Shown here one piece after another: positions 2,956-49,721 of a stretch of DNA of 64,000 bases. The notes below the pieces were generated by a model, which was given only the letters and a program-made list of their open reading frames with translations, did not search any database and was not told the origin of the DNA. The position numbers and the translations under genes were made by a program. The stretch comes from a phage, in assembly GCA_033648345.1 (NCBI GenBank), contig GCA_033648345.1_4121.1; one strand, written 5' to 3'. The first letter of the stretch is position 1. Each line of letters starts with the position of its first letter.

Positions 2956-3348
2956 ATGACTGAATCTGAACTACGTGAAATGATAGATTTCATTTATGAA
3001 ATGGTGCAAGATAAAAATAACATTAATACAATTACTACTGGACCAAGACAAATTGGTAATCAAATGACATATTCGTTGTCCTTATGGTTACACCCGAACT
3101 TCAAGGTTGATTGTTTGCATTTTCGTCCTGATATTGATGCTTATTATTTTGTAAATCATGATGCATTAATGAAACCAAATAAGCGTCCAGTTGATGATGC
3201 CTTTGTGACGCACCCATTTTATCTGGCTGATTCCGAAGAAGATGAGTTTCAAAAGAACACAACGTTAAGCCCAGGTGAAATTTGCATCCCTTACACACTA
3301 AAAGATAAAATGATTTACATCACAGAAGTTATGAAAACATGCTGGTAA
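2956..3348 (+). CDS. hypothetical protein, EEE-F-Q-x-S C-terminal motif family
   Basis: ORF in track; contains SEEDEFQKNTTL motif shared with about 13 other ORFs. Confidence 0.5.
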   Translation: MTESELREMIDFIYEMVQDKNNINTITTGPRQIGNQMTYSLSLWLHPNFKVDCLHFRPDIDAYYFVNHDALMKPNKRPVDDAFVTHPFYLADSEEDEFQKNTTLSPGEICIPYTLKDKMIYITEVMKTCW

Positions 3349-3378
3349 GTGCAATGAAACTCTGATATAATACAAACA

Positions 3379-3615
3379 ATGATAATAGGAGGATATATGA
3401 AATTTATTAATTTTGATATTTCTAAGGCCAAAGAATTATTTGTAAGAAATGCAGTTTATGATATCATGTTACATAACGGTACTGTACAAGAAGATGTTGT
3501 ATTGTTTTCGTTTGATGGTGAAAATCTCGAAACTATATATAAATTCAGCAACTTAGATGGTGACTTTTGGGAAACCAGTGCTGTTAAAATGTATAGAATT
3601 AAAAAGGAGCATTAA
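3379..3615 (+). CDS. hypothetical protein
   Basis: ORF in track with GGAGG RBS. Confidence 0.45.
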   Translation: MIIGGYMKFINFDISKAKELFVRNAVYDIMLHNGTVQEDVVLFSFDGENLETIYKFSNLDGDFWETSAVKMYRIKKEH

Positions 3616-3616
3616 T

Positions 3617-4105
3617 ATGCCAATTCGTGGTGTACCAGAACCATTAATGGAAGTTATTAAGCATGTTCGCATTGGAGATCGAGAAGTTAATCTTCGCCGT
3701 AATAACATTTTTTACTTTAAAACTTCAGAAATGAGTTCTGTACAGATTGTCATTGGTACATCTATTAAGATTACTCGTGTACTTGATGGTAGTACTGACT
3801 TCGTTGAATATAATGTACTTACTAATAAAGTAACGCATATATATAAATGGAGTGGGTATAAAACTATTAAGTATGAATTTGACTTAGCTAGAACTGAAGA
3901 AGAACGATTTATGCTGAGTACTATCAATCCAGCAAACTATCCTGACCTTGATGCATTTTTGCTAATTTTAAAATTGTATAATGAAGCAAATCAGAAAGCC
4001 AAAGATTATGATAGAATCATGTATGAACGCCGAAAAGAACGTGCACAAAAAAGTTATGATCTGTATGATAGCCCATACGTGAAATATAGTAAGGGGTCGA
4101 AATGA
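3617..4105 (+). CDS. hypothetical protein, EEE-F-x-x-S motif family
   Basis: track ORF trimmed to ATG at 3617 after AAGGAG; TEEERFMLSTI motif. Confidence 0.5.
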   Translation: MPIRGVPEPLMEVIKHVRIGDREVNLRRNNIFYFKTSEMSSVQIVIGTSIKITRVLDGSTDFVEYNVLTNKVTHIYKWSGYKTIKYEFDLARTEEERFMLSTINPANYPDLDAFLLILKLYNEANQKAKDYDRIMYERRKERAQKSYDLYDSPYVKYSKGSK

Positions 4106-4506
4106 ATAAAGAAGTTCAAATTATCATAACTCCACCTATACAAAGTCTGGATGTATCCATTAGTGATTTTTTGGAAAAATACTATGAATGGTTTAATGAA
4201 GATTCAGTAATTTATAACCATTCATTACCTGATGGTTTCGTTGAGCTTATTGAATTAAATGCAAAATCACTATACTTCTGTGTTGAATACAATGATTATA
4301 TGACAGATGAAGTATATCGTTTTCGTTGTACATTGTATCCTAACCATTTTTCCATTGGTTATAAAGACTATCAGTACTGCACCACAAACTATAGTGTAGA
4401 GGAAGAATTTCAGTACAATTTACTTTATCCAGATTTAGATTATACGATTGCAGTGCTGTTGACTAAAATCATGGATTTTTATAAAGATAAATATAATGCA
4501 GCCTAA
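4102..4506 (+). CDS. hypothetical protein, EEE-F-Q motif family
   Basis: ORF in track; VEEEFQYNLL motif; overlapping start/stop. Confidence 0.5.
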   Translation: MNKEVQIIITPPIQSLDVSISDFLEKYYEWFNEDSVIYNHSLPDGFVELIELNAKSLYFCVEYNDYMTDEVYRFRCTLYPNHFSIGYKDYQYCTTNYSVEEEFQYNLLYPDLDYTIAVLLTKIMDFYKDKYNAA

Positions 4507-4681
4507 GACATTTGATGAGTGGTTTAATCTACACTATAATATAAATGCAGCAGATATATACTATTTTAAGCTTGAATTGTATATATCATTGCGTAACCCA
4601 ATTGAGTACTATAACAACATTATCAATTGTGATGATTTTGGTACATATTTTAGTATAGCAGTCATGGACAAAATAAGATGA
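4496..4681 (+). CDS. hypothetical small protein
   Basis: ORF in track, translationally coupled to neighbours. Confidence 0.35.
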   Translation: MQPKTFDEWFNLHYNINAADIYYFKLELYISLRNPIEYYNNIINCDDFGTYFSIAVMDKIR

Positions 4682-4860
4682 CACACAAAGAATGGTTAGA
4701 TGAACTAAAATTTAAACATAATCCTTTTGGTTTTGGTATACGCCAAGGTCATTATGATGTGTTAAAAGATAAACAACTTTTCAAATCATTGGTACTTAAT
4801 GAGGATAGTAATCACTGGTACATCTATGAGCTTGCAATTAGAGACAAAAAAATTGACTAG
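4678..4860 (+). CDS. MTHEEW-family small protein
   Basis: N-terminus MTHKEW and C-terminal W(Y/F)IYELA(I/F)RD shared with 5406-5576; MTHEEW N-terminus also in 7240, 7401, 7562. Confidence 0.5.
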   Translation: MTHKEWLDELKFKHNPFGFGIRQGHYDVLKDKQLFKSLVLNEDSNHWYIYELAIRDKKID

Positions 4861-4905
4861 TACTGATATATATGCTATTCTTTTGTTTTAAGCAGGAGAA
4901 CAATA

Positions 4906-5409
4906 ATGCTCATTACGCATGTACCGGAAAGTATTACTGAGATTTTAAGTAAAATTAATGTTAATGAATTTGAACGAACAGTTCGAAAACAAGGTACTTA
5001 TCACTATAAGCACAAAGATGGTGAACATCAAATAAGCTTAGATCAGAATTATCAAACTCTAACAATTAAAATGGTTACTCGCTGGAATTTTATTCGTAAA
5101 GATACTATTATCTGTGATTTTGGTAAAAGACTACTTAGAAAATGTTTCTCTGAAACAAATGGTATCTATCCAAACCCGAATAGAATTTTCACATATCAAT
5201 ACATCACAGATGAAGATGTACATTTTCAAGAGAGTTTGGTATGTGATAATAAGTACTTTCCCGCATTTTCAGATAATTTGAAGTTAAAAGAACTATATAA
5301 CTATTTCTTAAACGACAATATTCTGTGGGATGAAGAATTAAAACAACGACAGATAGAACGTGAAAAGAAAAAAGTCTGGACTGGTTCACATTGGATGCAA
5401 CGTAAATGA
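4906..5409 (+). CDS. hypothetical protein, F-Q-E-S motif family
   Basis: ORF in track; DEDVHFQESLV motif. Confidence 0.5.
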   Translation: MLITHVPESITEILSKINVNEFERTVRKQGTYHYKHKDGEHQISLDQNYQTLTIKMVTRWNFIRKDTIICDFGKRLLRKCFSETNGIYPNPNRIFTYQYITDEDVHFQESLVCDNKYFPAFSDNLKLKELYNYFLNDNILWDEELKQRQIEREKKKVWTGSHWMQRK

Positions 5410-5576
5410 CACATGAAGAATGGATGTCTATTATGAAAGAACGATATGATCTGTTTGGGAATGGATTTCGTGATGGTCATTACGATATTTTACGAGACAA
5501 ACATCAGTTCGATTTATATGTACTAGATGAGGATGGAAATCGATGGTTCATATATGAGCTTGCATTTAGGGATTAG
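5406..5576 (+). CDS. MTHEEW-family small protein (56 aa)
   Basis: not in track (<60 aa); ATG at 5406 overlapping upstream stop; translation MTHEEWMSIMKERYDLFGNGFRDGHYD...WFIYELAFRD. Confidence 0.45.
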   Translation: MTHEEWMSIMKERYDLFGNGFRDGHYDILRDKHQFDLYVLDEDGNRWFIYELAFRD

Positions 5577-5586
5577 AAGATATATT

Positions 5587-5935
<349 letters not shown>

Positions 5936-6725: not shown

Positions 6726-7130
6726 ATGGAACGTAAAATGTGGGGAAACGAATATAAATCAAAACAAGGAAATATTGGAGTTGCTCGTGCAATAGATTAC
6801 TATGTCACGAATGGTTATTCAGTGTCGATACCGATGAATGACACACAATCATATGACTTGGTTGTTGATGATAATATTAAATTGTATAGAGTATCCGTAA
6901 AAACAACATCATACAAAGCACCATCTGGAAATTATAATGTCCAACTAAAAAATAGTGGTGGTTCTAGTGGTAAGAGTGTTATACGAAACTTTGATAAAAC
7001 ATCGTGTGACATACTGTTTGTGTTGTGTGATAATAATGACATATATATCATCCCAATTGATGACATTGATGCACATTCAGCATTTACATTAACTGAAGAA
7101 CGTAAGAAATATATTAGAAAATTATATTAA
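6726..7130 (+). CDS. hypothetical protein, possible PD-(D/E)xK-like nuclease
   Basis: ORF in track; D...VSVK spacing weakly resembles PD-(D/E)xK; low certainty. Confidence 0.45.
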   Translation: MERKMWGNEYKSKQGNIGVARAIDYYVTNGYSVSIPMNDTQSYDLVVDDNIKLYRVSVKTTSYKAPSGNYNVQLKNSGGSSGKSVIRNFDKTSCDILFVLCDNNDIYIIPIDDIDAHSAFTLTEERKKYIRKLY

Positions 7131-7734: not shown

Positions 7735-8188
<454 letters not shown>

Positions 8189-8926: not shown

Positions 8927-9455
<529 letters not shown>

Positions 9456-9648: not shown

Positions 9649-10173
<525 letters not shown>

Positions 10174-11770: not shown

Positions 11771-11849
<79 letters not shown>

Positions 11850-11866
11850 CAAAATAAAGGTACACT

Positions 11867-12283
11867 ATGAAATACAACATTGTTAAAATGGTGAACTATG
11901 TATTAAAAAACAACACATGGTCACTGCATGATGTACAAATAGAAGATATTGGTGAAGTTAGAGTATTTTGCTATGATCCAGATTTGAATCAAACCACAGA
12001 TTTGAGTAAATGTTTTAATATTTTTCTTGGTTATGAATTCAATAATCATTTTTATTCATTTGATGTGTATTTTGAACGAGTTAAAATCAGAATTGCTAAT
12101 GTAAATAGTGATTATTATGACACTAGAATTGAATTGAATTTTGACGATATTGATACTGAAGAAAAATTCTTTCAGTACTGCCTCGTTAACAACACATTAG
12201 GATTAACATTTGATGACATTAGTGCTATCCTTAAAGTTCAAAGATTGATTCCAGAAGAGGTATTAAATCCGTTAAATGACTAG
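11867..12283 (+). CDS. hypothetical protein, F-Q-Y motif family
   Basis: ORF in track; C-terminus paralogous to 12276-12641 (FFQYCLVNN...GLTFDDISAIL). Confidence 0.5.
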   Translation: MKYNIVKMVNYVLKNNTWSLHDVQIEDIGEVRVFCYDPDLNQTTDLSKCFNIFLGYEFNNHFYSFDVYFERVKIRIANVNSDYYDTRIELNFDDIDTEEKFFQYCLVNNTLGLTFDDISAILKVQRLIPEEVLNPLND

Positions 12284-12641
12284 TCTAATAGTACGTATAA
12301 TGCAAGATGTTTGTAATAACCTTTATACAGGCAATTTTGACGATCCGAACATAAAAATATTATGTTATGATGGTTTTACAATGGTACATCCAGCCTATTC
12401 AAATAATATCTACGTAGCATATACAGGTGAAAATCTATTATATCAATTTGATATATATAGTACAATGACAAAGATAATTTTGGATGCATCTAAACCAGCA
12501 ATCTTTATTGCTTCTCATGATTACCATTACACTGAAGAATCACTATTTCAGTACTCAATGATTAATGACATTGGTGGGTTGACATTGGATGAGGTTAATG
12601 CTATACTAGCTGTCTCACGTTTGGTTAAAACCCACAATTAG
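12276..12641 (+). CDS. hypothetical protein, F-Q-Y motif family
   Basis: ORF in track; LFQYSMINDIGGLTLDEVNAIL. Confidence 0.5.
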   Translation: MTSLIVRIMQDVCNNLYTGNFDDPNIKILCYDGFTMVHPAYSNNIYVAYTGENLLYQFDIYSTMTKIILDASKPAIFIASHDYHYTEESLFQYSMINDIGGLTLDEVNAILAVSRLVKTHN

Positions 12642-12650
12642 GAGATTCAT

Positions 12651-12842
12651 ATGTTCTGGAATTTATTATGCTTGTTTGGTCGTACATTGGTTCTTGCTAT
12701 TATTCATACACCTGGTATTCGTAATTATGTTTCTTATGAATTTAAGAAAAATTATCACAACAATACTGAAGTTCGTACAACTAAGATGTGCAAAGACTTC
12801 AAGGTGGATGTTCCACCATTCAAGAAGTACGAGGATGAATAA
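12651..12842 (+). CDS. hypothetical small protein
   Basis: ORF in track; overlapping alternative frame also open. Confidence 0.35.
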   Translation: MFWNLLCLFGRTLVLAIIHTPGIRNYVSYEFKKNYHNNTEVRTTKMCKDFKVDVPPFKKYEDE

Positions 12843-13126
12843 TGGAATTCATTGTTGCACCTGATGAACTTAAAACATTCACGTTCAGAGATAATAACAA
12901 TTATCCTTATACAAATCATTCATTGAATTCATTACATGTTATTGCAATCATTGCATCTGAATACAGGGATAATCCATGTATTGATTTTAAAACCACTGAT
13001 GGCGAATATACATGGGTGATCCCAAAAGATAAATATAGTTATCAAGGGGCAGTAGAAATTCGTGACTCGATTCTAAAACAAATCGAAGATGGAAATACTC
13101 ATCCTAAACTAAACACTCAGTACTGA
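12842..13126 (+). CDS. hypothetical protein
   Basis: ORF in track. Confidence 0.45.
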   Translation: MEFIVAPDELKTFTFRDNNNYPYTNHSLNSLHVIAIIASEYRDNPCIDFKTTDGEYTWVIPKDKYSYQGAVEIRDSILKQIEDGNTHPKLNTQY

Positions 13127-13285
13127 AATCGTTTAACCGGATAGCTTCTAGTCGGTACTGAATTCCTCCTTTTGTCTAGAAGCTATCACTCTTTTAAAGT
13201 ATAATGATATCACCCTCATGGTTCATTATATTCGTTACCCTCTAACAGTATCTTTTTATTCCTCTTTGATACTGTATTTTAGAAG

Positions 13286-13315
13286 TTGACATTTTTACTT
13301 CTACTGTGTTATACT
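13286..13315 (+). promoter_or_regulatory. putative promoter TTGACA-N18-TATACT
   Basis: ttgacatttttacttctactgtgttatact. Confidence 0.4.
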
Positions 13316-13317
13316 TA

Positions 13318-13348
13318 AGGCTGATTCATTATGAATCGGCCTTTTTTC
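13318..13348 (+). terminator. strong hairpin plus T-run immediately downstream of a promoter (terminator or attenuator)
   Basis: 11-bp stem aggctgattca / tgaatcggcct followed by T6. Confidence 0.5.
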
Positions 13349-13365
13349 TTGTGGGGATTAATGTA

Positions 13366-13782
13366 ATGAATAAAGAAGTTATTAGTTTAATGGATGAGTA
13401 TATCAACCAAACATATCGTTTTATATTTTTTAATGCATTTGAGTCCAGGACAACGTATCATTCTGGTGAATATGAGATAACAACTGGATCATTTCTTAAC
13501 GGATACATGGAGTTTTTAGAACAAAGCGATAATGTTTTCATTTCCATATCTGAAAAACATGGTGATGATTATGTTATTGATGTATGGCCTAATAAAGTAG
13601 AGATTGACACTACAAAGAAAATTGTAATTGATGTGGACGAATCATTGTATGATTTAACTGAAGATATGTATATGCAACTAAATTTCGTATACGATCTAAC
13701 TAACATAAGTTATTCTAATCTAAGTAAATTATTTTATATTTGTGGTGTACTACATAAAAACGTACAACAAAATAAAGGATAA
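13366..13782 (+). CDS. hypothetical protein
   Basis: track ORF 13306-13782 trimmed to ATG 13366 downstream of hairpin. Confidence 0.5.
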   Translation: MNKEVISLMDEYINQTYRFIFFNAFESRTTYHSGEYEITTGSFLNGYMEFLEQSDNVFISISEKHGDDYVIDVWPNKVEIDTTKKIVIDVDESLYDLTEDMYMQLNFVYDLTNISYSNLSKLFYICGVLHKNVQQNKG

Positions 13783-13790
13783 ACATTTAA

Positions 13791-14195
13791 ATGTTGAAAA
13801 TTCCACCACATACACTATCTATGCTAATTGAAAATGGTGTAATATTTTCTGAAGGGTGTAGTTCATTCTATACATGTGACGTAGACCCGTACACATTTGA
13901 ATACCGTTCATTTAAAAATACATTGAGTGTTCCATGTGAAGCTTCTGACAACATTGTACTTGTCGTTTCGTTCTATGGTGTGCCAAAATTCTTCATTGAT
14001 ATATATTATGATTCTTTTAAGATACAAACATACGATCATTTTCTTGGTGAAGTGCTCTTGCAAATGCAGATTGAACATGTTACTATAGATGAAGATATGT
14101 TCTTTCAGCTATCTACATTATACGATATGTGTGGATTGTCAGTTGACAACATAAATGGTATCTTTGAAATTGCCAGAACCCTACGAGGAAGATGA
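13791..14195 (+). CDS. hypothetical protein, F-Q-L-S motif family
   Basis: ORF in track; DEDMFFQLSTLYDMCGLSVDNINGIFEI. Confidence 0.5.
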   Translation: MLKIPPHTLSMLIENGVIFSEGCSSFYTCDVDPYTFEYRSFKNTLSVPCEASDNIVLVVSFYGVPKFFIDIYYDSFKIQTYDHFLGEVLLQMQIEHVTIDEDMFFQLSTLYDMCGLSVDNINGIFEIARTLRGR

Positions 14196-14196
14196 T

Positions 14197-14604
14197 ATGG
14201 TCAAAATTTTAAGTGATAATGCAGTTGATATTGTCATTGATGTACTTGAAAACAGTAATACATTTGAGAAGAAACACAGTACTGTATACTTCGGTAAAGA
14301 TTGTTGGCTGAACTATACATCTGATAGTTCATTTATAATTCGTGTTGAAAAGGGTGATATTGGATTAACGATACATGCTTCCTATACTAAAACAATCACT
14401 GTTATTGCCAACAAACCAAGTACTTCTGATTTCTGGGATAGAATTGATGATTGTGACCATTTCATGTCAACATTCTATAAAACAGAAGAAGAACATTTCA
14501 TGGATAGTACTGTCAAAGAATTAGCTATTCCATTTAAACTTATGAAAGCTGCAAGAGATTTTATTTTAAAATACAAAAAAATAGGAGTTGATGATGCAAT
14601 TTAA
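14197..14604 (+). CDS. hypothetical protein, EEE-F-x-x-S motif family
   Basis: track ORF trimmed to ATG 14197 after GAGGAAG; KTEEEHFMDSTV. Confidence 0.5.
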   Translation: MVKILSDNAVDIVIDVLENSNTFEKKHSTVYFGKDCWLNYTSDSSFIIRVEKGDIGLTIHASYTKTITVIANKPSTSDFWDRIDDCDHFMSTFYKTEEEHFMDSTVKELAIPFKLMKAARDFILKYKKIGVDDAI

Positions 14605-15987: not shown

Positions 15988-16329
15988 ATGGACATGAGTT
16001 CAACAATTCAGTACTTGAGCGAGAATTTTGTCAAAATCATTTCACGTGGTGGTATGATTGTGCATCCTGAAACTGAAGATATGTATATCATTCGTTTTGA
16101 TGCAAATTCTTATGATCAAGTACTTGTTGTTTCGAAATTAGTAGGTTATAATGAAGTCGTTCAGTTCTGCTGTACCGAGTTCGGTATCTATATTAAAGAT
16201 GCAGAAACCAATGAGATTTCACATTATTTTTATCACACACTGATGGGTACTAAAGATTTTGGATTGAAATTCAATGATTTAGTACAATGTCACTATATGT
16301 TTAAAACATACCCAGCATCTGGGAAATAA
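15988..16329 (+). CDS. hypothetical protein
   Basis: ORF in track after GGAG. Confidence 0.5.
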   Translation: MDMSSTIQYLSENFVKIISRGGMIVHPETEDMYIIRFDANSYDQVLVVSKLVGYNEVVQFCCTEFGIYIKDAETNEISHYFYHTLMGTKDFGLKFNDLVQCHYMFKTYPASGK

Positions 16330-28181: not shown

Positions 28182-28382
28182 ATGTTTACTTTATATCTCG
28201 CAGTAGTTCTCACCAATGGTGAAATCACTCGTACTATTGGTGAAGGTGTATATAAAACACCAGACCAGTGCTACTCTGCTACTCATTGGCCTCGCGATAG
28301 TGGGGATGAAACTCGCACTGAATTCAAATGCATGAAAGTAAAAGGTGATTTTGTTAACCTTAAGGTTATCGAGGCGAAATAA
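28182..28382 (+). CDS. hypothetical small protein with N-terminal hydrophobic segment
   Basis: track ORF trimmed to ATG 28182 after AAGG. Confidence 0.4.
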   Translation: MFTLYLAVVLTNGEITRTIGEGVYKTPDQCYSATHWPRDSGDETRTEFKCMKVKGDFVNLKVIEAK

Positions 28383-28897
28383 TGGATATTAATGAGTTGT
28401 TGATCTTATTGTTTAATCGTGGAAATGATGTAAGACGTTCTGAATATCAAGACAAAATTCACATTGAAACTGATAAATGTTATGGTAAAACAACTCATGA
28501 GATTTTGAAGCCAAATGGCAAACGATATGCCGATGTATGTTTTCATGAACGAAGTGATGGTAGTGAAATAATCAGTACTGAAATTGTGTTTTATGATAGA
28601 TCCTCGGCAGGTTCGTATGAAATAGAACTTATATATTGTCCTGGTTCAGAAACACACAATAAACGTCAGATATTATATGATGTTTATTCACCTCCAGGTG
28701 TAGCTGAATATTTTGTTATTGATTACAGTACTGAAGAAAGTGTGTTTCAACAGAGCTTGATTCATAACTTCCAGTTGAATGATCCAAATGTACCAAAGTT
28801 GTTCAAACTACTCGATACTATCGATGTTGATTTTGAATTTGTTATGTGCATTAGAACTTCCTTGATCGATGAATTTATGGAACTACTTAATATATGA
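28382..28897 (+). CDS. hypothetical protein, EE-x-F-Q-Q-S motif family
   Basis: ORF in track; STEESVFQQSLIHN. Confidence 0.5.
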   Translation: MDINELLILLFNRGNDVRRSEYQDKIHIETDKCYGKTTHEILKPNGKRYADVCFHERSDGSEIISTEIVFYDRSSAGSYEIELIYCPGSETHNKRQILYDVYSPPGVAEYFVIDYSTEESVFQQSLIHNFQLNDPNVPKLFKLLDTIDVDFEFVMCIRTSLIDEFMELLNI

Positions 28898-30937: not shown

Positions 30938-31303
30938 ATGAAAAAATATATAAAAATGATAATGGTGTTTGTAGTATTCATGCTTTATTCAAGGTTCAGT
31001 ACAGCCGTACCTGCTTACCTTGATTGTATGGGAAACGATGGAACATGGCATGTACTTTCTAATGACCCACAAAATGGAAACAATATTGTCGTAGATAATG
31101 AGGTTTACCGTTTCAGGGCCGAGAGTTTGATTGGGAATAAAAAGGTATCGACATATAAATCAGATGCTGGTATAATAGCAAATGTAATATTGATAGTGGA
31201 CCCCAAGACAAAGGATGGGGATATTTACATAGTCATTTATCAAGATTCGTCGAACAAACGCGATCAGGATATTGATAAATTGAATATTCATTGTGAACTT
31301 TAA
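30938..31303 (+). CDS. secreted protein (signal peptide)
   Basis: N-terminal hydrophobic leader ...SRFSTAVPA. Confidence 0.5.
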   Translation: MKKYIKMIMVFVVFMLYSRFSTAVPAYLDCMGNDGTWHVLSNDPQNGNNIVVDNEVYRFRAESLIGNKKVSTYKSDAGIIANVILIVDPKTKDGDIYIVIYQDSSNKRDQDIDKLNIHCEL

Positions 31304-31313: not shown

Positions 31314-31697
31314 ATGATAAACGATGTAATGCTTTATGTATTAATTACTCCGATTCTTATTAACTCAGTAATAACTATTTCAATGGCATTATTTGGTATA
31401 GTAGCAATTGTTTATGCGGTAAGTACTGGAAAGTATACTTTAATTAGTAAGGTTGATTCATGGTTCGCATCTGATAGTGTACCATATTCAGCTAGTATGA
31501 TTACGATTGGTATTCTAATCGTTGCATTTACACTGCACTGTATTGGTTTTATTAATACAAGTATTTTTTCAGTTTTTATTGGTCTATCATTATATCCATC
31601 ACTTTGGTACTTGATTTATGTAACCGATGTTTGGTATAATAACTACAAGCAGTACAAAGTGAAGAAATCCATTTTATCCAAAGGAAACAAATCATGA
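31314..31697 (+). CDS. integral membrane protein
   Basis: multiple hydrophobic helices. Confidence 0.45.
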   Translation: MINDVMLYVLITPILINSVITISMALFGIVAIVYAVSTGKYTLISKVDSWFASDSVPYSASMITIGILIVAFTLHCIGFINTSIFSVFIGLSLYPSLWYLIYVTDVWYNNYKQYKVKKSILSKGNKS

Positions 31698-32044
31698 AAG
31701 TAATTTTGTTTTTTGTTTGTATGATTATATGTGGTATGTCTTATGCAGAACCATTACCTGGACTAGTCTGTACTGAAGGTGATATTAAACACATTTACCA
31801 AGGTGATAGCGATGACCATACTATCGTTTATATCGATGGTGAAGTGTATAATTTTGTTAAAGAACATACTGTAGGTGACATTAGTTTTACGCAGTACTCG
31901 AATGATACTGATCCCAATATGCTTGCATTTCTTCAAGTTGATGTATATGAAGAAAGTAATGGCGAACAGTATGTTAAACTTGTGATGATGCGTAAGGCAG
32001 CAAAACAGGCAACATTCGGTGGCTTGTGTAAATATGAGGACTAA
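31694..32044 (+). CDS. secreted protein (signal peptide)
   Basis: leader ...CGMSYAEP. Confidence 0.5.
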   Translation: MKVILFFVCMIICGMSYAEPLPGLVCTEGDIKHIYQGDSDDHTIVYIDGEVYNFVKEHTVGDISFTQYSNDTDPNMLAFLQVDVYEESNGEQYVKLVMMRKAAKQATFGGLCKYED

Positions 32045-34295: not shown

Positions 34296-34868
34296 ATGAA
34301 TAGAAAAGGTAAGTTTAAAGTATCAAAGAAGAACAAAAGTTCTAGATTTAGACCTATAACTTTAACTTTTAAGGCTAAAGAAGAATTAACTGCACTTAGT
34401 AAAAAGATAATTTCATCTAAGATTAAAGTATCATACGTAAATTCGGTAAAATTTCAAAAGGTTAAACCACAAGACAAACTCATTTCACTTATATTTAAAC
34501 GTAATGATTTTGAGATATTAGTAGATGATTATAGAGCCTATAATGCTGGATTCATTCATGTCACTTGTAATACCGAACTAACTGAGTTGGAACATTTGAC
34601 ATGTATCATAAGTGTAGATAACGGTGTGGTGAAGTACAATTTTTTACATTTTACCAATATCAATAATGGAATGGGTGTACAATCCAGACCTATAGTACCT
34701 ACATGTGATGTGACTAATTTAGCAAAGCTCAATGAAGAAGAATATTTTCAAGAAAGCATTGTAACTGAGCATTTAGATGCTATAATAGCAACTTACAAAG
34801 AATGCATATGGGTTTTGAATGCGATAAAGCCCAAATTGTGTTTAATGAATGTCGTTCGTGATTTATAA
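34296..34868 (+). CDS. hypothetical protein, EEE-Y-F-Q-E-S motif family
   Basis: ORF in track; LNEEEYFQESIV. Confidence 0.5.
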   Translation: MNRKGKFKVSKKNKSSRFRPITLTFKAKEELTALSKKIISSKIKVSYVNSVKFQKVKPQDKLISLIFKRNDFEILVDDYRAYNAGFIHVTCNTELTELEHLTCIISVDNGVVKYNFLHFTNINNGMGVQSRPIVPTCDVTNLAKLNEEEYFQESIVTEHLDAIIATYKECIWVLNAIKPKLCLMNVVRDL

Positions 34869-35906: not shown

Positions 35907-36164
35907 ATGGCAGAAACATTATCACTATATGCATTAGTACTGTTATTTGTCGGATTTCTTCCCGCACTTATTACAGCCATTCGTGTTGTTAAACATGAAG
36001 CTGCGTTGATTGTATGTAGTATTGGGGCGAACATTCTATTGTATTTCTTTTTAACAAATACTATTGTACTGTTTGCTTTCTTTATCATGATTCTGTGGGT
36101 ACTTGTAATTCTCGGATTCTTCATTTGGTCATTGGTTGATCCTAAGAAAAAACAGGAGAAGTGA
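35907..36164 (+). CDS. small membrane protein
   Basis: track ORF (TTG start) trimmed to ATG 35907; hydrophobic. Confidence 0.45.
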   Translation: MAETLSLYALVLLFVGFLPALITAIRVVKHEAALIVCSIGANILLYFFLTNTIVLFAFFIMILWVLVILGFFIWSLVDPKKKQEK

Positions 36165-36165
36165 A

Positions 36166-36462
36166 ATGAAATTAATTATTGTAATGATGATGTGTTTGGT
36201 TTTCCCAGTACTGGCTACTCCTAATCTGGACTGCACACTGATGCGTTCAGATGGTGACACACTTGAAATCAACACATATGAACTCTTTGGTCCAAGTGTA
36301 GTGGAGAATGAAACCACCTACAATTTCAAAGCTATTGACTTTGAAGGTAATGTTCCAGTACTAACTACAATGACTATTGACAAAACTACTTTACTCGGAC
36401 GAATCACCACACAACGCGGAGAAAGTAAAACATTCACAGCGAAAGCTGACTGTAACTACTAA
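36166..36462 (+). CDS. secreted small protein (signal peptide)
   Basis: track ORF trimmed to ATG 36166 after AGGAG; leader MKLIIVMMMCLVFPVLA. Confidence 0.5.
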   Translation: MKLIIVMMMCLVFPVLATPNLDCTLMRSDGDTLEINTYELFGPSVVENETTYNFKAIDFEGNVPVLTTMTIDKTTLLGRITTQRGESKTFTAKADCNY

Positions 36463-36483: not shown

Positions 36484-36514
36484 GGGTTGACTTCGGTCAA
36501 CCTTTATATATAAT
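36484..36514 (+). promoter_or_regulatory. PeSL cassette
   Basis: ggttgac-TTCG-gtcaacc then tataat. Confidence 0.7.
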
Positions 36515-36527
36515 GGAAGAAATAAAC

Positions 36528-37055
36528 ATGGAACGTTGGAAATTAATTCCTGATTATGACTATTCAATTTCTGATCATGGAAGAGTAAGAAACGAACAAA
36601 CTGGATATATAAGTTGTGGATTTAAAAATAAAGATGGGTATGTGAAGGTCGATTTGTATCGCAATTCTGTGAAAAATAGAAAGGCGATTCATCGACTAGT
36701 AGCTGAAGCATTTTTACCACCACCCACACAGAAACAGTTACAGTGGGCGAGTAGAACAAAGAAAAAAGTTGTTCACATAAACCATAAAGATTGTAATAGA
36801 AGTAACAATCACTATTTGAATTTGGAATGGAGCACAGCATCTGAAAACGTACTATATTCTTATTCACATGGTAACGCAACAACTAATCGTGGTGCTGCTG
36901 TGTTGACATGGGAAATTGTAAGAGAAATAAGAAAAGATTATAATGATAATTATAATGATGTGATAGAATATGCACGAGAAAATTGTAATAAATACCGTGT
37001 ATGTAAAAAAACAATACGTCGTATTTTATACAATCAAACATGGATAGAGGATTAA
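36528..37055 (+). CDS. HNH homing endonuclease (NUMOD4-like N-terminus plus HNH)
   Basis: WKLIPDYDYSISDHGRVRN and HINHKDCNRSNNHYLNLEWSTASEN; start set to ATG 36528 because track start overlaps the -10 box. Confidence 0.8.
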   Translation: MERWKLIPDYDYSISDHGRVRNEQTGYISCGFKNKDGYVKVDLYRNSVKNRKAIHRLVAEAFLPPPTQKQLQWASRTKKKVVHINHKDCNRSNNHYLNLEWSTASENVLYSYSHGNATTNRGAAVLTWEIVREIRKDYNDNYNDVIEYARENCNKYRVCKKTIRRILYNQTWIED

Positions 37056-39303: not shown

Positions 39304-39717
39304 ATGTTAAAAGTTATTTTCCGTTCTATCAGTTCATTACTTCTTATGATTAGTTCAGTTTGTTATGCAAATGAAGTATCTGATTTATTTGAGAAGAATT
39401 ACCCAACCGCACAAGAGATGGGTGTTTTAAAATGCAAGCTAACTTCGTACAACATCATCGGCAGTAAACTTGTACTGGAACATGAACGTAGTACACCAAT
39501 CCCTCTAGTAGAAGAAGGCAGTACCTTTAGCTTCAAGTACGGGGTGAATGTAACATCTGGTGTAATGAACAATGTTGATGCAGAGACTGGTTCAACATGG
39601 AGTACTAGCGGTAAAGATGTGTTTCATCGTATGCGTGAAAATGGTAAACTGAAGTACGTATATGAAAGTTCATTCATGAAACGTGTATTCATTATAAAAA
39701 ATTGTGTACCAGCATAA
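39304..39717 (+). CDS. secreted protein (signal peptide)
   Basis: leader ...LLMISSVCYA; GGAGG RBS. Confidence 0.5.
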   Translation: MLKVIFRSISSLLLMISSVCYANEVSDLFEKNYPTAQEMGVLKCKLTSYNIIGSKLVLEHERSTPIPLVEEGSTFSFKYGVNVTSGVMNNVDAETGSTWSTSGKDVFHRMRENGKLKYVYESSFMKRVFIIKNCVPA

Positions 39718-40014: not shown

Positions 40015-40353
40015 ATGGAACAACATTTTGAATTAATTAATAAGGTATCATTTTATGTAGTATCGTTAATTTGGGTGTATTACATGTTTTGTTACATTAT
40101 TGCATTCTTCCGATACACAACCTTGTATCAACGCATATACTACGATGCACCCATTTCATTTATGATGTTCTGTGCATGTACGTGGGGGATAATTGAAGCA
40201 CTGGTATGTGGATATAGTACTGACGAATTAAATCTCGTATCGGTGTTGACATTACTAACAATTGCTACTATGATAGCTACTGTTCCGATATTTTTGCTCT
40301 TTAAACTGCTTCATCGCATCGATGAGTGGCGTAATAAAATCCCTGAAAAGTAA
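40015..40353 (+). CDS. small membrane protein, tandem-array family (C-terminal R-x-K-I/M-P-E/N-K/R tail)
   Basis: hydrophobic helices; C-terminus RNKIPEK; paralogous to 45394-47833 array. Confidence 0.55.
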   Translation: MEQHFELINKVSFYVVSLIWVYYMFCYIIAFFRYTTLYQRIYYDAPISFMMFCACTWGIIEALVCGYSTDELNLVSVLTLLTIATMIATVPIFLLFKLLHRIDEWRNKIPEK

Positions 40354-40362
40354 GGATTGATA

Positions 40363-40704
40363 ATGATTTTTTACACTAATGCGTTTGCTTATGCCGTTGC
40401 ATCAATCTACATTGTGTACTTCTTATTTGGTGGAGTACTGTACTTCTTTAAGTACAAAACATTGTTTAACCGAATGTATCCAAATCATCCAATTGTAGTA
40501 GTACTTTTGATTATTTCTGTTGCTCACATCATTGTAGAAACAATAATGGGTATCAGTGCAGTACATTACAGTCTAGGTACTATTGTAATTATTACTATGA
40601 TCATCGCATACATTTTAGTAATGGGTTTTGGTTTATTTGGAAATGTAGCAATGAAATTGTATAATCGAATCAAAACATTACGTGATAATCTACCGGAGCG
40701 TTGA
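40363..40704 (+). CDS. small membrane protein, tandem-array family
   Basis: C-terminus RDNLPER; coupled. Confidence 0.55.
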   Translation: MIFYTNAFAYAVASIYIVYFLFGGVLYFFKYKTLFNRMYPNHPIVVVLLIISVAHIIVETIMGISAVHYSLGTIVIITMIIAYILVMGFGLFGNVAMKLYNRIKTLRDNLPER

Positions 40705-40705
40705 G

Positions 40706-41050
40706 ATGTATAATTTAAATTTAATATCATATATCATAACAACACTGTTTACTTTCTATGCCTTTGTTGGTATACTCCTACTGTACTTTAAATTTTATAA
40801 ACTTTTTGATCGTTTTTATCCGTCATTAGAACATGAATTCTTATTAGTGATGTACATATGTCTAACGTTTATGTCTACATTTTTCACTGCATCTGATGGT
40901 ATCATTGGTATTAAAGCTGAAGAACCAAATGGGAGTACGCTTGTTGCCTTTATTCTGGTAGGATTTTTCAGTACTTATATTACCTTTATTTCAGGATGTA
41001 CCGTGATTGATTATCTTGTGAAATTACGAGATAAAATGCCAAATCGATAG
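40706..41050 (+). CDS. small membrane protein, tandem-array family
   Basis: C-terminus RDKMPNR. Confidence 0.55.
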   Translation: MYNLNLISYIITTLFTFYAFVGILLLYFKFYKLFDRFYPSLEHEFLLVMYICLTFMSTFFTASDGIIGIKAEEPNGSTLVAFILVGFFSTYITFISGCTVIDYLVKLRDKMPNR

Positions 41051-43668: not shown

Positions 43669-44145
43669 ATGACACGCATTAACTTAGTACACGTTAAAGA
43701 ACTTGCTGACCAACATCTGATGGCTGAATATCGTGAACTCCCACGTGTATTTGGTGCTGTACAAAAACACGTTCAAGCACGTAAGCGTGTACGTGATTTC
43801 AAAATTAACAGTACTTACCTGTTAGGTTCAGGTCATGTAACATTCTTCTACAACAAGTTATTGTACTTACAGAAGCGTCATATTGAAATTGTTAACGAAT
43901 GTTTGCGTCGTGGTATGAAGATTCAAAACATTGAATTAAACGACATTAGCGGCTTCCCTGCTGAGTTTTGTAATGACTACGTACCATCGGAGTCAGAGAT
44001 TAAAATGTCTCGTGAGCGTTTGATTGAGAAGCTACAGATGAAGCCTACGTGGTATAAGTTTACTGATGTTGAATGTCCACAGTACGTTAAAGATATGTTG
44101 AATGAAATTGAAGAACAAATCAAAGATGAAATGAATAACTATTAA
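43669..44145 (+). CDS. denV: DenV-type pyrimidine-dimer DNA glycosylase (T4 endonuclease V family)
   Basis: MTRINL...[21 protein letters not shown]...KRVRDFKI...GHVTFFY...RPTWYK closely matches the T4 endonuclease V sequence as I recall it. Confidence 0.93.
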
Positions 44146-45393: not shown

Positions 45394-45732
45394 ATGCTTG
45401 AGTTTTTTAATTCAGATACAATGCTTAGTATTACTTTGATTTATCTGTTTGGTTTTTTCTTTTATCATGCACTAGTTGTAGTACTATGGTATTTTAAAAA
45501 GAAAATCGTTTTCAAACTGTATCCTGATGGAAACATTTCACTACTTCTTTTCACTATTATCCAAGGTATGTTTGCAATTGTTGGTCTTATCGCACACTTA
45601 ATTTATTGTGCTAATCCACAGTTGAACTCAATATCACAATATATTGTATTCCTTGGATTACTAATTTGGGTGCTGATATACTTGTTTAATATCATCATTA
45701 ATGGTCGAGCAAAAATTCGTGGGGACTTCTAA
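45394..45732 (+). CDS. small membrane protein, tandem-array family member 1
   Basis: hydrophobic helices; YFKKKIVFKLYP motif. Confidence 0.55.
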   Translation: MLEFFNSDTMLSITLIYLFGFFFYHALVVVLWYFKKKIVFKLYPDGNISLLLFTIIQGMFAIVGLIAHLIYCANPQLNSISQYIVFLGLLIWVLIYLFNIIINGRAKIRGDF

Positions 45733-46079
45733 TGTTTGAATCTTATCTTGAGTTTTTAAAGAGTAGTTCTGTTGCACATTCAATTGCAGGGATTATTCTA
45801 ACAGGTTATGTAACATTTTGGGTAGTTATGTTTCTAGGATGGTATTTTAAACGACAATTCTATAAGCGTAATGGTGAAGATTTTATGAATTCTGTTATTA
45901 ATCAATCGTTGTTTGCATCAACATTGATAGCATGTATTGTAGCAACACTCACAGGAAAGGTACTGCCAGCATTCTCCGCAGTTTACGGTACATTGGGTAT
46001 GATATGTGTAGTTTTTTACTTGATCATTAAACTTTGTTGTGTTATGATTGACCTTCGAAACAAGATACCGGAGGAATGA
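45732..46079 (+). CDS. small membrane protein, tandem-array family member 2
   Basis: C-terminus RNKIPEE; ATGA-type coupling. Confidence 0.55.
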   Translation: MFESYLEFLKSSSVAHSIAGIILTGYVTFWVVMFLGWYFKRQFYKRNGEDFMNSVINQSLFASTLIACIVATLTGKVLPAFSAVYGTLGMICVVFYLIIKLCCVMIDLRNKIPEE

Positions 46080-46414
46080 TGGAATATTTTTTACACTTAC
46101 TGCCGTGGTATATGAAAGTTAGTACTATGTACTATATTCTTAGTGCTGGATTCTACTTTCTGATGTGGTTCTTCAAACGACCAATTTCAGTATTCATCTC
46201 TGATAACATGCTGCAATTAAAATTACACGCATGGTTTTTTATGGCGATGTTTATGCCTATTATTCACTACTCAATGATTAGTAGAGGTTTACGTTCTAAT
46301 GGTGAACCAATTATATTAGTATTCTATTGGGGTTCAACTATTGCATATGTAAGTTTGTTGTTGATCCCAGCCGTTCATAAATTACGTGCTAAAGTTCCTG
46401 ATGCGAGGTACTAA
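46076..46414 (+). CDS. small membrane protein, tandem-array family member 3
   Basis: C-terminus RAKVPDARY. Confidence 0.55.
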   Translation: MMEYFLHLLPWYMKVSTMYYILSAGFYFLMWFFKRPISVFISDNMLQLKLHAWFFMAMFMPIIHYSMISRGLRSNGEPIILVFYWGSTIAYVSLLLIPAVHKLRAKVPDARY

Positions 46415-46728
46415 TGGATATCGTAACATTGATTTACACGCTTTATTCATTCTATTTTATTATGTGTTGGGTTGGATTTTTATTTGTATTGAAGATGTTT
46501 GATTATGTTGAAAAACAGATAAAAGAATTTTGTATTCCTTTTATTGGGTCAACCATAATTAGTATTACTTGTTTGTATTATTTGGTATGTGATCCACCTG
46601 TTAATACAGCAATGATTGACTTCATGTTATTACCAACAACTGTTATTTTTTTATGTAGTCTGATGCCACCGATTAGTCGTGGGCTAACCGAATTTAGACG
46701 CAATCAAAAGCGTAAACGAGGGATGTGA
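46414..46728 (+). CDS. small membrane protein, tandem-array family member 4
   Basis: hydrophobic; coupled. Confidence 0.5.
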   Translation: MDIVTLIYTLYSFYFIMCWVGFLFVLKMFDYVEKQIKEFCIPFIGSTIISITCLYYLVCDPPVNTAMIDFMLLPTTVIFLCSLMPPISRGLTEFRRNQKRKRGM

Positions 46729-47096
46729 TGGAAATTGCACTTATTATATTAACTGCTATGTTGTTTATTAGTACAATTGTTATTATTGGCAAGTTCTTCT
46801 GTGTATCCTTCTTGGAAACCGTATACGATGAAATTGCTGATGATTATGAATTACATGCGGGATTTTTTACTACGTATTGGATTAGTTTATTACTACTTAT
46901 CACTGTATGGATTTTACATATATTCAAATGGGGTATGGTAGATGGTGATCCAGTACTGGCAATTATCTGTGTAGTGTTTGGTCTACTCGGTGGTGCTGTC
47001 CATAATCTGATGGTAATTTGGCAAACCGTACAATATGTATTAGTTCCACATTTTCAGAGAATGCATCAAAGCATCAAATACCGCAAACGAGGATAA
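46725..47096 (+). CDS. small membrane protein, tandem-array family member 5
   Basis: hydrophobic; coupled. Confidence 0.5.
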   Translation: MMEIALIILTAMLFISTIVIIGKFFCVSFLETVYDEIADDYELHAGFFTTYWISLLLLITVWILHIFKWGMVDGDPVLAIICVVFGLLGGAVHNLMVIWQTVQYVLVPHFQRMHQSIKYRKRG

Positions 47097-47097
47097 C

Positions 47098-47460
47098 ATG
47101 AATAATATTGAATTATCTTTTATTGGTCAATTAATGGTAATGGCGTATACATTTATCTTCTCACTGAATGCATTCGTGTGCATTGGGAAGTACTTCCATA
47201 AGCGACCATTATCAAATATATATGATGTAATACAAAGGAGATATAGTCCAGCATATACTGTGTTGAGTACAGCATTCAATTTTGGTTTTATTCTAATGCT
47301 GGTTGCATTATTAACATCGAGTTTAAATTTTATAACATTTGGTATTATGGTATGTTCACTAACACTGAGTGTGGTTATTCTCTGTGCATCCGTTGAGTTG
47401 ATGGCGTGGATGTATTATAAGATTTCCGAAATCCATGACCGTTTAGGTAAGAGGAACTAA
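47098..47460 (+). CDS. small membrane protein, tandem-array family member 6
   Basis: hydrophobic; coupled. Confidence 0.5.
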   Translation: MNNIELSFIGQLMVMAYTFIFSLNAFVCIGKYFHKRPLSNIYDVIQRRYSPAYTVLSTAFNFGFILMLVALLTSSLNFITFGIMVCSLTLSVVILCASVELMAWMYYKISEIHDRLGKRN

Positions 47461-47461
47461 A

Positions 47462-47833
47462 ATGAGTTATCGTGAAATATTTTCGATCATTACTATTATT
47501 GTTTTTAGTTTAGGTTCTTTGGTGTGGTTATTGTATTACTTCTGTGTAACCCCAGTATATAATATGCTAAATTCAGTACGCTCTGATGTTGGTATTGTTT
47601 CTTTTATTATCTTCATGGCATATTATATGCTAAGTATCACAGGTTTGGTTTTGGTTGTTATCTTTGACCTTGGACCGAATCAAGATGGTATGGAGGTGTG
47701 GGAATTGATAACGATGTTTGCATGTATGATACCTGCATTTGGTGTATGTGCTGGTGTATTTTATGGGTTATGTAAAGGTGTGAACTACTTAAAAAATATC
47801 CACAATACTATTCGTAAAAAACGTATGTTATAA
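47462..47833 (+). CDS. small membrane protein, tandem-array family member 7
   Basis: hydrophobic; coupled. Confidence 0.5.
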   Translation: MSYREIFSIITIIVFSLGSLVWLLYYFCVTPVYNMLNSVRSDVGIVSFIIFMAYYMLSITGLVLVVIFDLGPNQDGMEVWELITMFACMIPAFGVCAGVFYGLCKGVNYLKNIHNTIRKKRML

Positions 47834-47834
47834 T

Positions 47835-47870
47835 AAAAATCCAGTACTATTATAGTACTGGATTAATTTT
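47835..47870. terminator. bidirectional terminator between convergent arrays
   Basis: ccagtac-N7-gtactgg hairpin flanked by A- and T-runs. Confidence 0.6.
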
Positions 47871-48993
47871 AATTATCTAAGCCACCAATTACACTGAACT
47901 GTGTGGTAACGTCTGAATTATTATCTATGTAAGTTCTTCTACCAACATAATATAGTTGTCCTTTAGCTTGAATAAAAGTTACGGTCCCTGTATTGAATGT
48001 TATAATATCATTGTATGTAATGTCAGGTGGTAGTGCTGCTGATAACGCAGTAACTTTACTTAATGCAGCACTAGCACTACCATTTATACCAGCAGCAATA
48101 CTACCAGTACCATAGAACTTATTATCTTTACCAATGAATACGTTGGCTGATGCTTGTGTAGCTGATGTTATTGCCTTACCAATTTGGAATGCGGTTCCTA
48201 TGGTGTATGGTGTGCTCCTGGCAGCGTCTATGCTTTGTGTATATCCATCCCCTAGCTGACCATTAACTTTGTCACCACATGAGTATAGAGTACCATTGTG
48301 GCTGTATATGATCCCACGGTTAGAGAAGCTAACAGCTTCTGCATTAGTCCATACTGGTGCGGTGTATGAGTTTACACGACTAGCGGTAGTTCCTAGACCT
48401 AGTATACCATATGTGTTATCACCACATCCAAACCATTGTCCAGAACTGTTTTGATAGAACACTGAACGTTCTGTTGATTCCATGCGTACAGCATCCACAG
48501 CACCACTTTTAACGAACGAAGTTGATGAGGATGTAGTACCAGTACCCAATGCACCATAAGTGTTTGTACCAATCGCATATATTGATCCTAGTGGTGTCAT
48601 AACACGTATGCAGTTATATCCCAATTGAACTTTACATTCAAATAGGTTGTCCCATATTTCAGGAACAGCAGAAAATAAATTTGTAATTTCGAACCATGAT
48701 GTTGTCGAACCAGTTAATCCTATACTGCTTTTGTTTCCTAAAATGAAAACAGTTTTGTCCTTCTTAATTATCCATGATGATAGGAAACCTATCTCACAGC
48801 TATGAACATTTGATTCTATTTGGGTAATATAATACTTAACTGTGTTATCACCCATGAATGCCGCAGCACCGGATGCAAAAAGGTTTCCAGTTTGTTTATT
48901 TAAAATGTAGTTATTGTTTCCATATACACTAACATCATAAGAACTTTCTTGTTTTTCGTTCCCATAATCAAATAACAATACGAAAGGTAACAT
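47869..48993 (-). CDS. RCC1-like repeat beta-propeller protein, array member 1
   Basis: MLPFVLLFDYGN N-terminus; repeats IYAIGTNTYGALGTGTT / WFGCGDNTYGILGLGTT / LYSCGDKVNGQLGDGYT. Confidence 0.75.
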   Translation of the reverse strand: MLPFVLLFDYGNEKQESSYDVSVYGNNNYILNKQTGNLFASGAAAFMGDNTVKYYITQIESNVHSCEIGFLSSWIIKKDKTVFILGNKSSIGLTGSTTSWFEITNLFSAVPEIWDNLFECKVQLGYNCIRVMTPLGSIYAIGTNTYGALGTGTTSSSTSFVKSGAVDAVRMESTERSVFYQNSSGQWFGCGDNTYGILGLGTTASRVNSYTAPVWTNAEAVSFSNRGIIYSHNGTLYSCGDKVNGQLGDGYTQSIDAARSTPYTIGTAFQIGKAITSATQASANVFIGKDNKFYGTGSIAAGINGSASAALSKVTALSAALPPDITYNDIITFNTGTVTFIQAKGQLYYVGRRTYIDNNSDVTTQFSVIGGLDN

Positions 48994-49070
48994 GATAAAA
49001 TCTCCTTGTGTTATACTTTATTTAATCATTTTATAATGTACAATTTTACAGCGATTTAATTGAGGTACTC

Positions 49071-49721
49071 ATGAATAAAAGAAGTAAGTTCTATCAAGAA
49101 TATTTCACTAAACAGAAACGATTCACAAAAAAATACTTTACATCATCCCACCGACCAGTTGCAAGTTACAAACGTCCTAATACTAACTATCTTACTGGTG
49201 GCAAGTTTAGTGCAAAGTTCGAATTACTTATGCGTGAAAAGAATATCAAGATGCATTACGCAGAGACGAGAAAAAACTCATCAATTATTTGTTCTGATTT
49301 TCTTGAGTACGGTTGCTTAACTTATAAATTCAATGATGTATATTTGTATATTGATGTTGATTGTAACAGTACTCTTATGTTTGAGATTTCAATTCACCCA
49401 AATCACAACCGTTATATAAACATTAACTTGATTGATAAAGTACTGATTGGTATATCTAGTACTGATGGTGGTGGATTTGAATTTATTGCTTCAAAATATG
49501 ATGAAGATTTCGTACTTTACCCAGTACTTGATGATGTGAAAGATATACTCAATTCATTAAAAGGAAGTCAATACAAATTATCTGAAGAACAGCTATTTCA
49601 GTACTCACTTATTCATGATGATATCGAGATATACTTAGAGTGTGCGAGAATATTGGAGTATCTTTATAATGAACTAACAACAACTGGTAAAGTGACAGCA
49701 TTCACATTATATAATATGTAA
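49071..49721 (+). CDS. hypothetical protein, EE-x-F-Q-Y-S motif family, embedded in minus-strand array
   Basis: ORF in track; SEEQLFQYSLIHDD. Confidence 0.55.
   Translation: MNKRSKFYQEYFTKQKRFTKKYFTSSHRPVASYKRPNTNYLTGGKFSAKFELLMREKNIKMHYAETRKNSSIICSDFLEYGCLTYKFNDVYLYIDVDCNSTLMFEISIHPNHNRYININLIDKVLIGISSTDGGGFEFIASKYDEDFVLYPVLDDVKDILNSLKGSQYKLSEEQLFQYSLIHDDIEIYLECARILEYLYNELTTTGKVTAFTLYNM

Follow-up and report, generated by a model that had tools for sequence, protein, structure and literature searches.

A previously unrecognized, high-copy-number family of small jumbo phage proteins recognizable by a 14-residue helix signature

Results

A motif-defined protein family in a jumbo coliphage. 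A 64,000-nucleotide stretch of phage DNA (GenBank assembly GCA_033648345.1, contig GCA_033648345.1_4121.1; hereafter, the window) encodes 14 members of a real, previously unrecognized family of paralogous proteins, which is of remarkable copy number and recognizable only by a 14-residue helix signature. An earlier note on the window, made from its sequence, had proposed a dispersed family of about 14 open reading frames (ORFs) sharing a C-terminal motif, namely, an acidic run followed by F-(Q/M)-x-(S/C/N)-(L/T/I)-(I/V). All 14 ORFs were found where the note had placed them, on the plus strand. The count of about 14 holds for the window, but the family is far larger overall, with approximately 58 members in a related genome and further arrays elsewhere.

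The motifs of all 14 ORFs fall in a single block of a MAFFT alignment, in which E and F are at least 90% conserved. The motif is present as proposed, with a sharper consensus, h-[TS]-E-E-x-[YLF]-F-Q-x-S-[TL]-[VI]-x-[DE] (h, hydrophobic). A regular expression for the motif matches 13 of the 107 genes in the window, compared with 0.05 expected from within-protein shuffles (2,000 shuffles; maximum, 2 matches). Relaxed expressions recovered 11 or 12 of the listed ORFs, along with one or two unrelated matches, in the plus frames and had zero matches in the minus frames of the window. In leave-one-out tests with a motif hidden Markov model (HMM), each omitted ORF scored 9 to 32 bits, above all 234 nonmember ORFs (≤5.3 bits), and four members omitted jointly were also recovered. 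An HMM built from 196 members found later scored exactly these 14 ORFs at ≥23.5 bits and the rest of the window at ≤6.5 bits; because of this separation, the list of 14, including the ORF at 13366 that had been described as weaker, is exact and complete for the window. The proteins are acidic and the genome has a GC content of 35%, so a chance or compositional artifact had to be considered. Given the excess of motif matches, the empty minus frames, the recovery of every member when left out, and hundreds more members with the same motif in other phages, this explanation is scarcely credible.

Pairwise BLASTP among the 14 ORFs connects only those at 11867, 12276, 13366, and 13791 (11867 versus 12276, 1.7e-10; 13366 versus 13791, 4.7e-6), and profiles were therefore needed to recognize the family. 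The motif had been placed roughly 30 to 40 residues from the C terminus; its C-terminal location stands, but the distance from the motif F to the C terminus ranges from 30 to 65 residues in the window.

Family size and distribution. We assembled ECO103 4-12-1, the unannotated complete genome of a relative, for comparison. The motif HMM derived from the window identified 56 ORFs in this genome, and 58 on converged iteration, all on one strand. Twenty of them lie at 0 to 50 kb, a block equivalent to the window region plus flank; 33 lie at 260 to 300 kb, and five lie at 190 to 220 kb and 320 to 350 kb. With the 618 annotated features of coliphage 121Q as a yardstick, these approximately 58 members represent roughly a tenth of the genes of ECO103 4-12-1. 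The median protein length is 148 amino acids (aa) (72 members). Two of 13 window members (4906 and 8927) have no ortholog in ECO103 4-12-1; family genes are thus gained and lost between close relatives.

A search of related genomes, which the earlier note had suggested, also revealed arrays in metagenomes and in further jumbo phages of the RaK2 type. When IMG/VR was scanned with a pattern, a family member was detected in a 345,809-bp contig, which we take to be Klebsiella phage RaK2, and at least 12 members arranged in tandem were detected in a 109-kb contig with approximately 74% identity to Salmonella phage Munch/7t3 and Klebsiella phage fENko-Kae01. Additional arrays were found in three more contigs, of 174 kb, 366 kb, and 50 kb; the last, from Logan, has at least 16 members within 20 kb. 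A HMMER scan of 1.84 billion representatives yielded 32 significant clusters, among them new metagenomic proteins, every one of which bears the motif; one of these proteins, P0065, has its closest isolated-phage relative in Erwinia phage Hallingskeid. Large-database homolog searches with family alignments, in which E values are scaled to billions of sequences, returned Asteriusvirus orthologs only, and a search with the motif-block alignment under the same scaling gave 19 candidates, none of them useful.

The 14 members in the window. The family members are as follows (plus strand throughout; motif positions in nucleotides [nt]).

2956..3348, plus strand: family member of 130 aa; motif DSEEDEFQKNTTLS at nt 3229-3270; leave-one-out score, 12.3 bits; phrog_32367 (function "unknown")
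3617..4105, plus strand: family member of 162 aa; motif RTEEERFMLSTINP at nt 3890-3931; basic C-terminal extension; phrog_22160
4102..4506, plus strand: family member of 134 aa; motif YSVEEEFQYNLLYP at nt 4390-4431; phrog_33143
4906..5409, plus strand: family member of 167 aa; motif TDEDVHFQESLVCD at nt 5206-5247; basic C-terminal extension; phrog_22160, in common with 3617
7795..8160, plus strand: family member of 121 aa; motif KTEEEYFQTSTVQE at nt 8050-8091; leave-one-out score, 24.4 bits
8927..9310, plus strand: family member of 127 aa; motif ADEADEFQKRTVYE at nt 9182-9223, with R in place of S; followed by tRNA-Ser at 9338-9427
11867..12283, plus strand: family member of 138 aa; motif DTEEKFFQYCLVNN at nt 12152-12193; leave-one-out score, 31.6 bits; phrog_17453
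12276..12641, plus strand: family member of 121 aa; motif YTEESLFQYSMIND at nt 12528-12569; structure modeled
13366..13782, plus strand: family member of 138 aa; motif LTEDMYMQLNFVYD at nt 13654-13695, degenerate, with M in place of F and N in place of S; leave-one-out score, 18.3 bits; phrog_35192
13791..14195, plus strand: family member of 134 aa; motif IDEDMFFQLSTLYD at nt 14085-14126
14197..14604, plus strand: family member of 135 aa; motif KTEEEHFMDSTVKE at nt 14479-14520; regular-expression match EEEHFMDSTV at 14485
28382..28897, plus strand: family member of 171 aa; motif STEESVFQQSLIHN at nt 28727-28768; orthologs P0001-P0005
34296..34868, plus strand: family member of 190 aa; motif LNEEEYFQESIVTE at nt 34728-34769; disordered basic N-terminal tail; structure modeled
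49071..49721, plus strand: family member of 216 aa; motif LSEEQLFQYSLIHD at nt 49578-49619; basic N-terminal region; leave-one-out score, 19.1 bits

For 3617, 13366, and 14197, the start positions are consistent with the annotation of 121Q and with full-length PHROG matches, and the 12276 product is 100% identical to 121Q gp142. Strongly basic, probably disordered extensions occur at the N termini of 34296 and 49071 and at the C termini of 3617 and 4906. The pI of these proteins (7 to 9.3) differs from that of the acidic majority, which hints that this subset may contact nucleic acid or membrane. Adjoining the 11867-14604 cluster is an ORF of 113 aa (15988-16329, plus strand) whose C terminus, HYFYHTLMGTKDFGLKFNDLV, looks similar on visual inspection to the 11867 motif region. 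Neither the motif HMM nor a subfamily HMM supports its membership; it may be a degenerate relative.

Motif anatomy. Among 72 members, the motif F (position 0) is kept in 68, Q in 66, and S in 55. Position −6 is hydrophobic, position −5 is T, S, D, N, or G, positions −4 and −3 are E within an acidic run from −4 to −2, position −1 is Y, L, or F, and positions +2 and +6 are variable. Established rules for helix starts include a preference for S, T, D, N, or G at the N-cap, the capping box, and a hydrophobic staple joining residues N' and N4. By these rules, [TS]-E-E-x-[YLF] would form a canonical N-cap (capping box) plus hydrophobic staple, in which −5 would be the N-cap, −4 to −2 would be N1 to N3, and −6 and −1 would be N' and N4. 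Residues F0, S3, [TL]4, and D7, together with Q1 and [VI]5, fall on one broad helical face. Because the conserved positions share this face while +2 and +6 vary, the pattern suggests the packed face of a central helix. The motif would then be a structural keystone, as opposed to a module added onto the protein or a site of cleavage.

N-terminal parts and predicted fold. The earlier note described N-terminal regions unrelated in sequence, and three approaches bear this out. Iterated HMM searches with N-terminal parts lacking the motif do not recruit one another, so that subfamilies stay unconnected; 191 N-terminal parts form 94 BLAST clusters; and hhalign profile-profile scores equal those of a reversed-sequence control, except for the pairs 3617/4906 (related at 95%) and 13366/13791.

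Structure prediction, also proposed in the note, placed the motif helix within a compact domain in both members modeled with AlphaFold2. The model of 12276 (predicted local distance difference test [pLDDT] score, 89.9; predicted template modeling [pTM] score, 0.84) comprises a helix at residues 4-15, five antiparallel strands at 26-79, the motif helix at 87-96, and a helix at 104-114. That of 34296 (pLDDT, 70; pTM, 0.68) has a disordered segment at 1-28, a helix at 30-40, seven strands at 45-133, the motif helix at 147-156, and a helix at 160-177. These distant members are thus predicted to share one layout, in which an N-terminal helix leads into an antiparallel beta-meander, followed by the motif helix and a C-terminal helix. 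The motif helix block has a pLDDT of 85 to 94 in both models. Additionally, independent BFVD models of paralogs superpose on the 12276 model over their full length; in Foldseek, paralogs at 18 to 29% identity align full length with template modeling (TM) scores of 0.64 to 0.76. Weaker BFVD matches to the 12276 model were proteins of phages CBB, fHe-Yen9-04, RaK2, and GAP32. The C-terminal motif proposed at the outset is upheld, but the idea that it forms a separate module on unrelated proteins is at odds with the single compact domain in the two models.

Expression context and protein properties. The plus strand of the window carries 28 near-consensus sigma-70 promoters between 897 and 44524 (cutoff, ≥11/12; 2.4 expected), ten of them perfect TTGACA-N16-18-TATAAT, compared with zero on the minus strand. 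One 11/12 promoter (7736-7763) lies just upstream of the 7795 ORF. Such dense promotion marks 897-44524 as a region for host RNA polymerase, presumably an early one.

Judging from their sequences, the family proteins are soluble and mostly acidic: the median pI is 4.7, versus 5.5 for background ORFs, and a transmembrane-like segment occurs in only 3 of 196 members. The virion proteins annotated in this region of 121Q are only gp154, gp155, gp199, and gp201, with no family member among them. In the accessible part of the phAPEC6 virion mass spectrometry data, the proteins listed for the early gene range are only gp035c, gp037c, gp077, and gp078c; these four were assigned to the four nonfamily virion genes of 121Q by size and gene order, not by sequence, and on this assignment no family member is listed there.

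Comparison with known families. Ten window members had no Pfam match beyond noise at E values up to 1, and 71 members gave only three unrelated single matches, each under its threshold. The 14 members had no NCBIfam match, and a sequence search of PDB returned nothing significant. Each of ten members tested against PHROGs matched a group of "unknown function" (32367, 22160, 33143, 34619, 38341, 17453, or 35192), with some cross-matches; PHROGs thus contains the family only in the form of several unconnected groups with no assigned role. The accessible jumbo phage genome papers and reviews were searched, and no account of the family was found in them.

The sole sequence match in PDB was the colicin DNase immunity protein Im9, whose helix I (YTEAEFLQLV) shares the helix start [ST]-E-x-E-F-x-Q and a hydrophobic residue before the cap. 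This match is not significant (E = 0.75, 13.4 bits) and spans only the motif and the next helix, so it does not place the family among Im9-like proteins. Im9 is all helical and without a beta-sheet, unlike the fold predicted here, and the likeness is probably best explained by a common helix-capping pattern. Among the closest known systems are alpha-beta sandwiches of the frataxin/CyaY and p32/MAM33 types and the TipC2 immunity protein (PDB 6dhx). The p32/MAM33/gC1qBP fold is defined by an N-terminal helix, a seven-stranded antiparallel sheet, and two C-terminal helices. For TipC2-like immunity, structural match together with linkage to a cognate toxin gene was not found for the family.

Genomic setting. 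The window has a GC content of 34 to 35% and matches Asteriusvirus-type jumbo coliphages (121Q, PBECO4, phAPEC6, WPEC5, and others; approximately 350 to 385 kb) at 90 to 97% identity in mosaic pieces. From position 1 to approximately 47.8 kb, the genes are almost all small and on the plus strand; from 47.9 kb on, there is a minus-strand array of RCC1-like genes, amid which the 49071 ORF stands alone. The following features were recorded around the family genes.

9338-9427 and 11777-11850: tRNA-Ser(GCT) and tRNA-Thr(TGT) genes, interspersed among family genes; 121Q has extra tRNAs at the matching place
6726-7130: PD-(D/E)XK endonuclease gene
9649-10173: homing-endonuclease-like gene (NUMOD4 and HNH); the ORF at 36513-37055 looks alike
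23133-24101: phage sigma factor gene
43669-44145: gene for a T4 denV-like pyrimidine-dimer glycosylase
30938-31303, 31694-32044, 36136-36462, and 39304-39717, plus strand: small proteins with N-terminal signal-peptide-like segments and alike cysteine/aromatic spacing
40015-41050 (three genes) and 45394-47833 (seven genes), plus strand: arrays of multipass membrane proteins of approximately 104 to 123 aa
47869-63910, minus strand: 13 tandem paralogs of 210 to 449 aa, nearly all starting MLPF[AV]RM[VF].YGN

The genes for the endonucleases, the glycosylase, and the sigma factor all fall inside the presumed early region. Most of the membrane proteins end in a shared R-[DN]-K-[IMV]-P-[ED]-[RKE] and have no Pfam match; these arrays are a second paralogous family with a C-terminal signature. 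The four proteins with signal-peptide-like segments are possibly a third, secreted or periplasmic. RCC1-like repeats (Pfam PF25390/PF00415) were found in both proteins of the minus-strand array that were scanned (47869-48993 and 60805-61998). The probable counterparts of this array, as far as the phAPEC6 report is accessible, are phAPEC6 virion proteins gp003-010 (approximately 40-kDa "DNA condensation proteins"), and its products may be hair-like or whisker fibers.

Discussion

The reading that we favor, with about an even chance of being right as a whole, is that the small soluble proteins encoded by these genes make up one very large family in RaK2-like jumbo phages, expanded within the lineage and diverging fast, which would provide a diversified scaffold of early host-interaction or antidefense binders. 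Each protein would be a single compact alpha+beta domain (N-terminal helix, 5- to 7-stranded antiparallel meander, motif helix, and C-terminal helix), in some cases with basic tails. The conserved motif would be its structural keystone, in which F, Q, S, [TL], [VI], and D pack a short central helix onto the sheet and the other helices, while the rest of the protein, above all the sheet surface, would be free to vary. The genes would be transcribed early by host RNA polymerase. Most likely, their products would bind or inhibit a range of host or competitor proteins stoichiometrically, as a repertoire that serves host takeover or antidefense and that arose through tandem duplication. We favor this reading because of the promoters, the solubility and acidity of the proteins, their absence from the virion proteins annotated or listed in relatives, and gene gain and loss between relatives.

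Several points weigh against it. No homology ties any family member to a function, and N-terminal homology is undetectable in sequence. Only two members were modeled, the second with moderate confidence (pLDDT, 70). The burial of F, Q, and S is read only from helical periodicity, and the early timing only from promoter consensus matches. Family orthologs are 83.7% identical, compared with 87.5% for neighboring early genes; because this difference is not significant, there is no specific arms-race signal at that scale. Finally, the near-invariant polar residues of the motif (E, E, Q, S, and D) appear to exceed what a purely structural role usually needs, and the strong conservation of E, E, Q, and S may leave room for a shared functional site.

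This last point leads to the strongest alternative, a possible but distinctly less probable one, that the conserved helix is surface exposed and serves as the docking point for a single common phage or host machine (e.g., a protease, a chaperone, RNA polymerase, or a secretion/packaging factor) while the variable remainder picks targets, in the manner of F-box and SOCS-box families. Such a role would account for the retention of E, E, Q, S, and D in 55 to 66 of 72 members while the rest drifts, as well as for the persistence of the motif, with no other conserved position, in distant phage lineages. However, the conserved set also includes large hydrophobics (F, L/T, V/I, and Y/L/F), which share one broad face with the polar residues, with the opposite positions +2 and +6 varying, a pattern that would fit a buried face; the helix is predicted to belong to a compact, confidently modeled domain; and no candidate partner turned up.

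Alternatively, a mobile two-helix C-terminal module of approximately 40 aa might have been fused by recombination to unrelated N-terminal domains. We consider this unlikely. The 94 clusters of N-terminal parts, their control-level hhalign scores, and their range of lengths (49 to 175 aa) are what such shuffling would produce, but in both models, the N-terminal part is predicted to consist of the same helix and beta-meander and to form one domain together with the motif helix, the Foldseek alignments of paralogs extend over the full length, and the tandem arrays speak for whole-gene duplication followed by divergence.

A third alternative starts from the literal likeness of some members (e.g., TEEGYFQGSTV and SEEYYFQNS) to a cleavage site of the tobacco etch virus (TEV)/3C type (ENLYFQ|S/G), with E-x-x-[YF]-F-Q|S cut after Q. 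Substrate sites of this type are accessible, flexible segments, whereas the motif is predicted to lie within a confident helix of a compact domain (block pLDDT, 85 to 94), and we reject the processing-site reading as very improbable because of this structural context. Conservation also extends on both sides of the would-be site, well past P1' (S-[TL]-[VI]-x-D) and ahead of P6, in the manner of helix capping and packing. Among proteases, the prohead protease alone was noted in relatives, no genome-wide protease search having been made; T4-type prohead proteases cleave after Glu.

The scaffold of diversified binders, which we continue to favor, has parallels elsewhere. Poxvirus Bcl-2-like proteins and the small early "host-takeover" proteins of T4 are viral multigene host-interaction families on one scaffold; as the family described here would be, they are divergent paralogs that share a fold and little sequence and are early, nonstructural, and strain variable. 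As a guide to function, this likeness is speculation. Among jumbo phages, the authors of the RaK2 genome noted, without more, that approximately 10% of its products are paralogues, and a comparative survey (Iyer et al.) called an approximately 35-copy zinc-ribbon expansion in Bacillus phage G "unprecedented." Both that expansion and the present one involve a small family with tens of copies in one jumbo phage genome, largely in tandem and without an assigned role. Unlike the phage G family, however, the motif family reaches approximately 58 copies in one genome, has another fold and no zinc ligands, and has one helix motif as its sole signature.

The family is currently without a name or a Pfam entry, and its recognition takes a sizable set of "hypothetical proteins" out of the dark matter of these genomes. 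About a tenth of the genes of a 350-kb phage (the 58 copies of ECO103 4-12-1) would be brought together in one family, along with arrays of similar extent in related jumbo phages that infect Klebsiella, Salmonella, and Erwinia, and a simple signature now serves to find members. A tractable question follows, namely, what at least 50 early, soluble, acidic variants of one scaffold bind. More speculatively, RaK2-like jumbo phages may carry one minimal alpha/beta scaffold as a combinatorial repertoire of at least 50 versions, every one fitted to its own host or defense protein, with the invariant EE..FQ.S helix also acting as a common handle to one shared phage or host machine. We think this combination rather doubtful; if true, such a scaffold-plus-handle repertoire would be the phage counterpart of diversification as seen in F-box proteins or antibodies, and no single effector family known in phage would be larger. 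If the proteins are host-takeover or antidefense factors, they would offer an abundant supply of new inhibitors, and if the motif is a shared handle, it would represent a new organizing principle for phage effectors.

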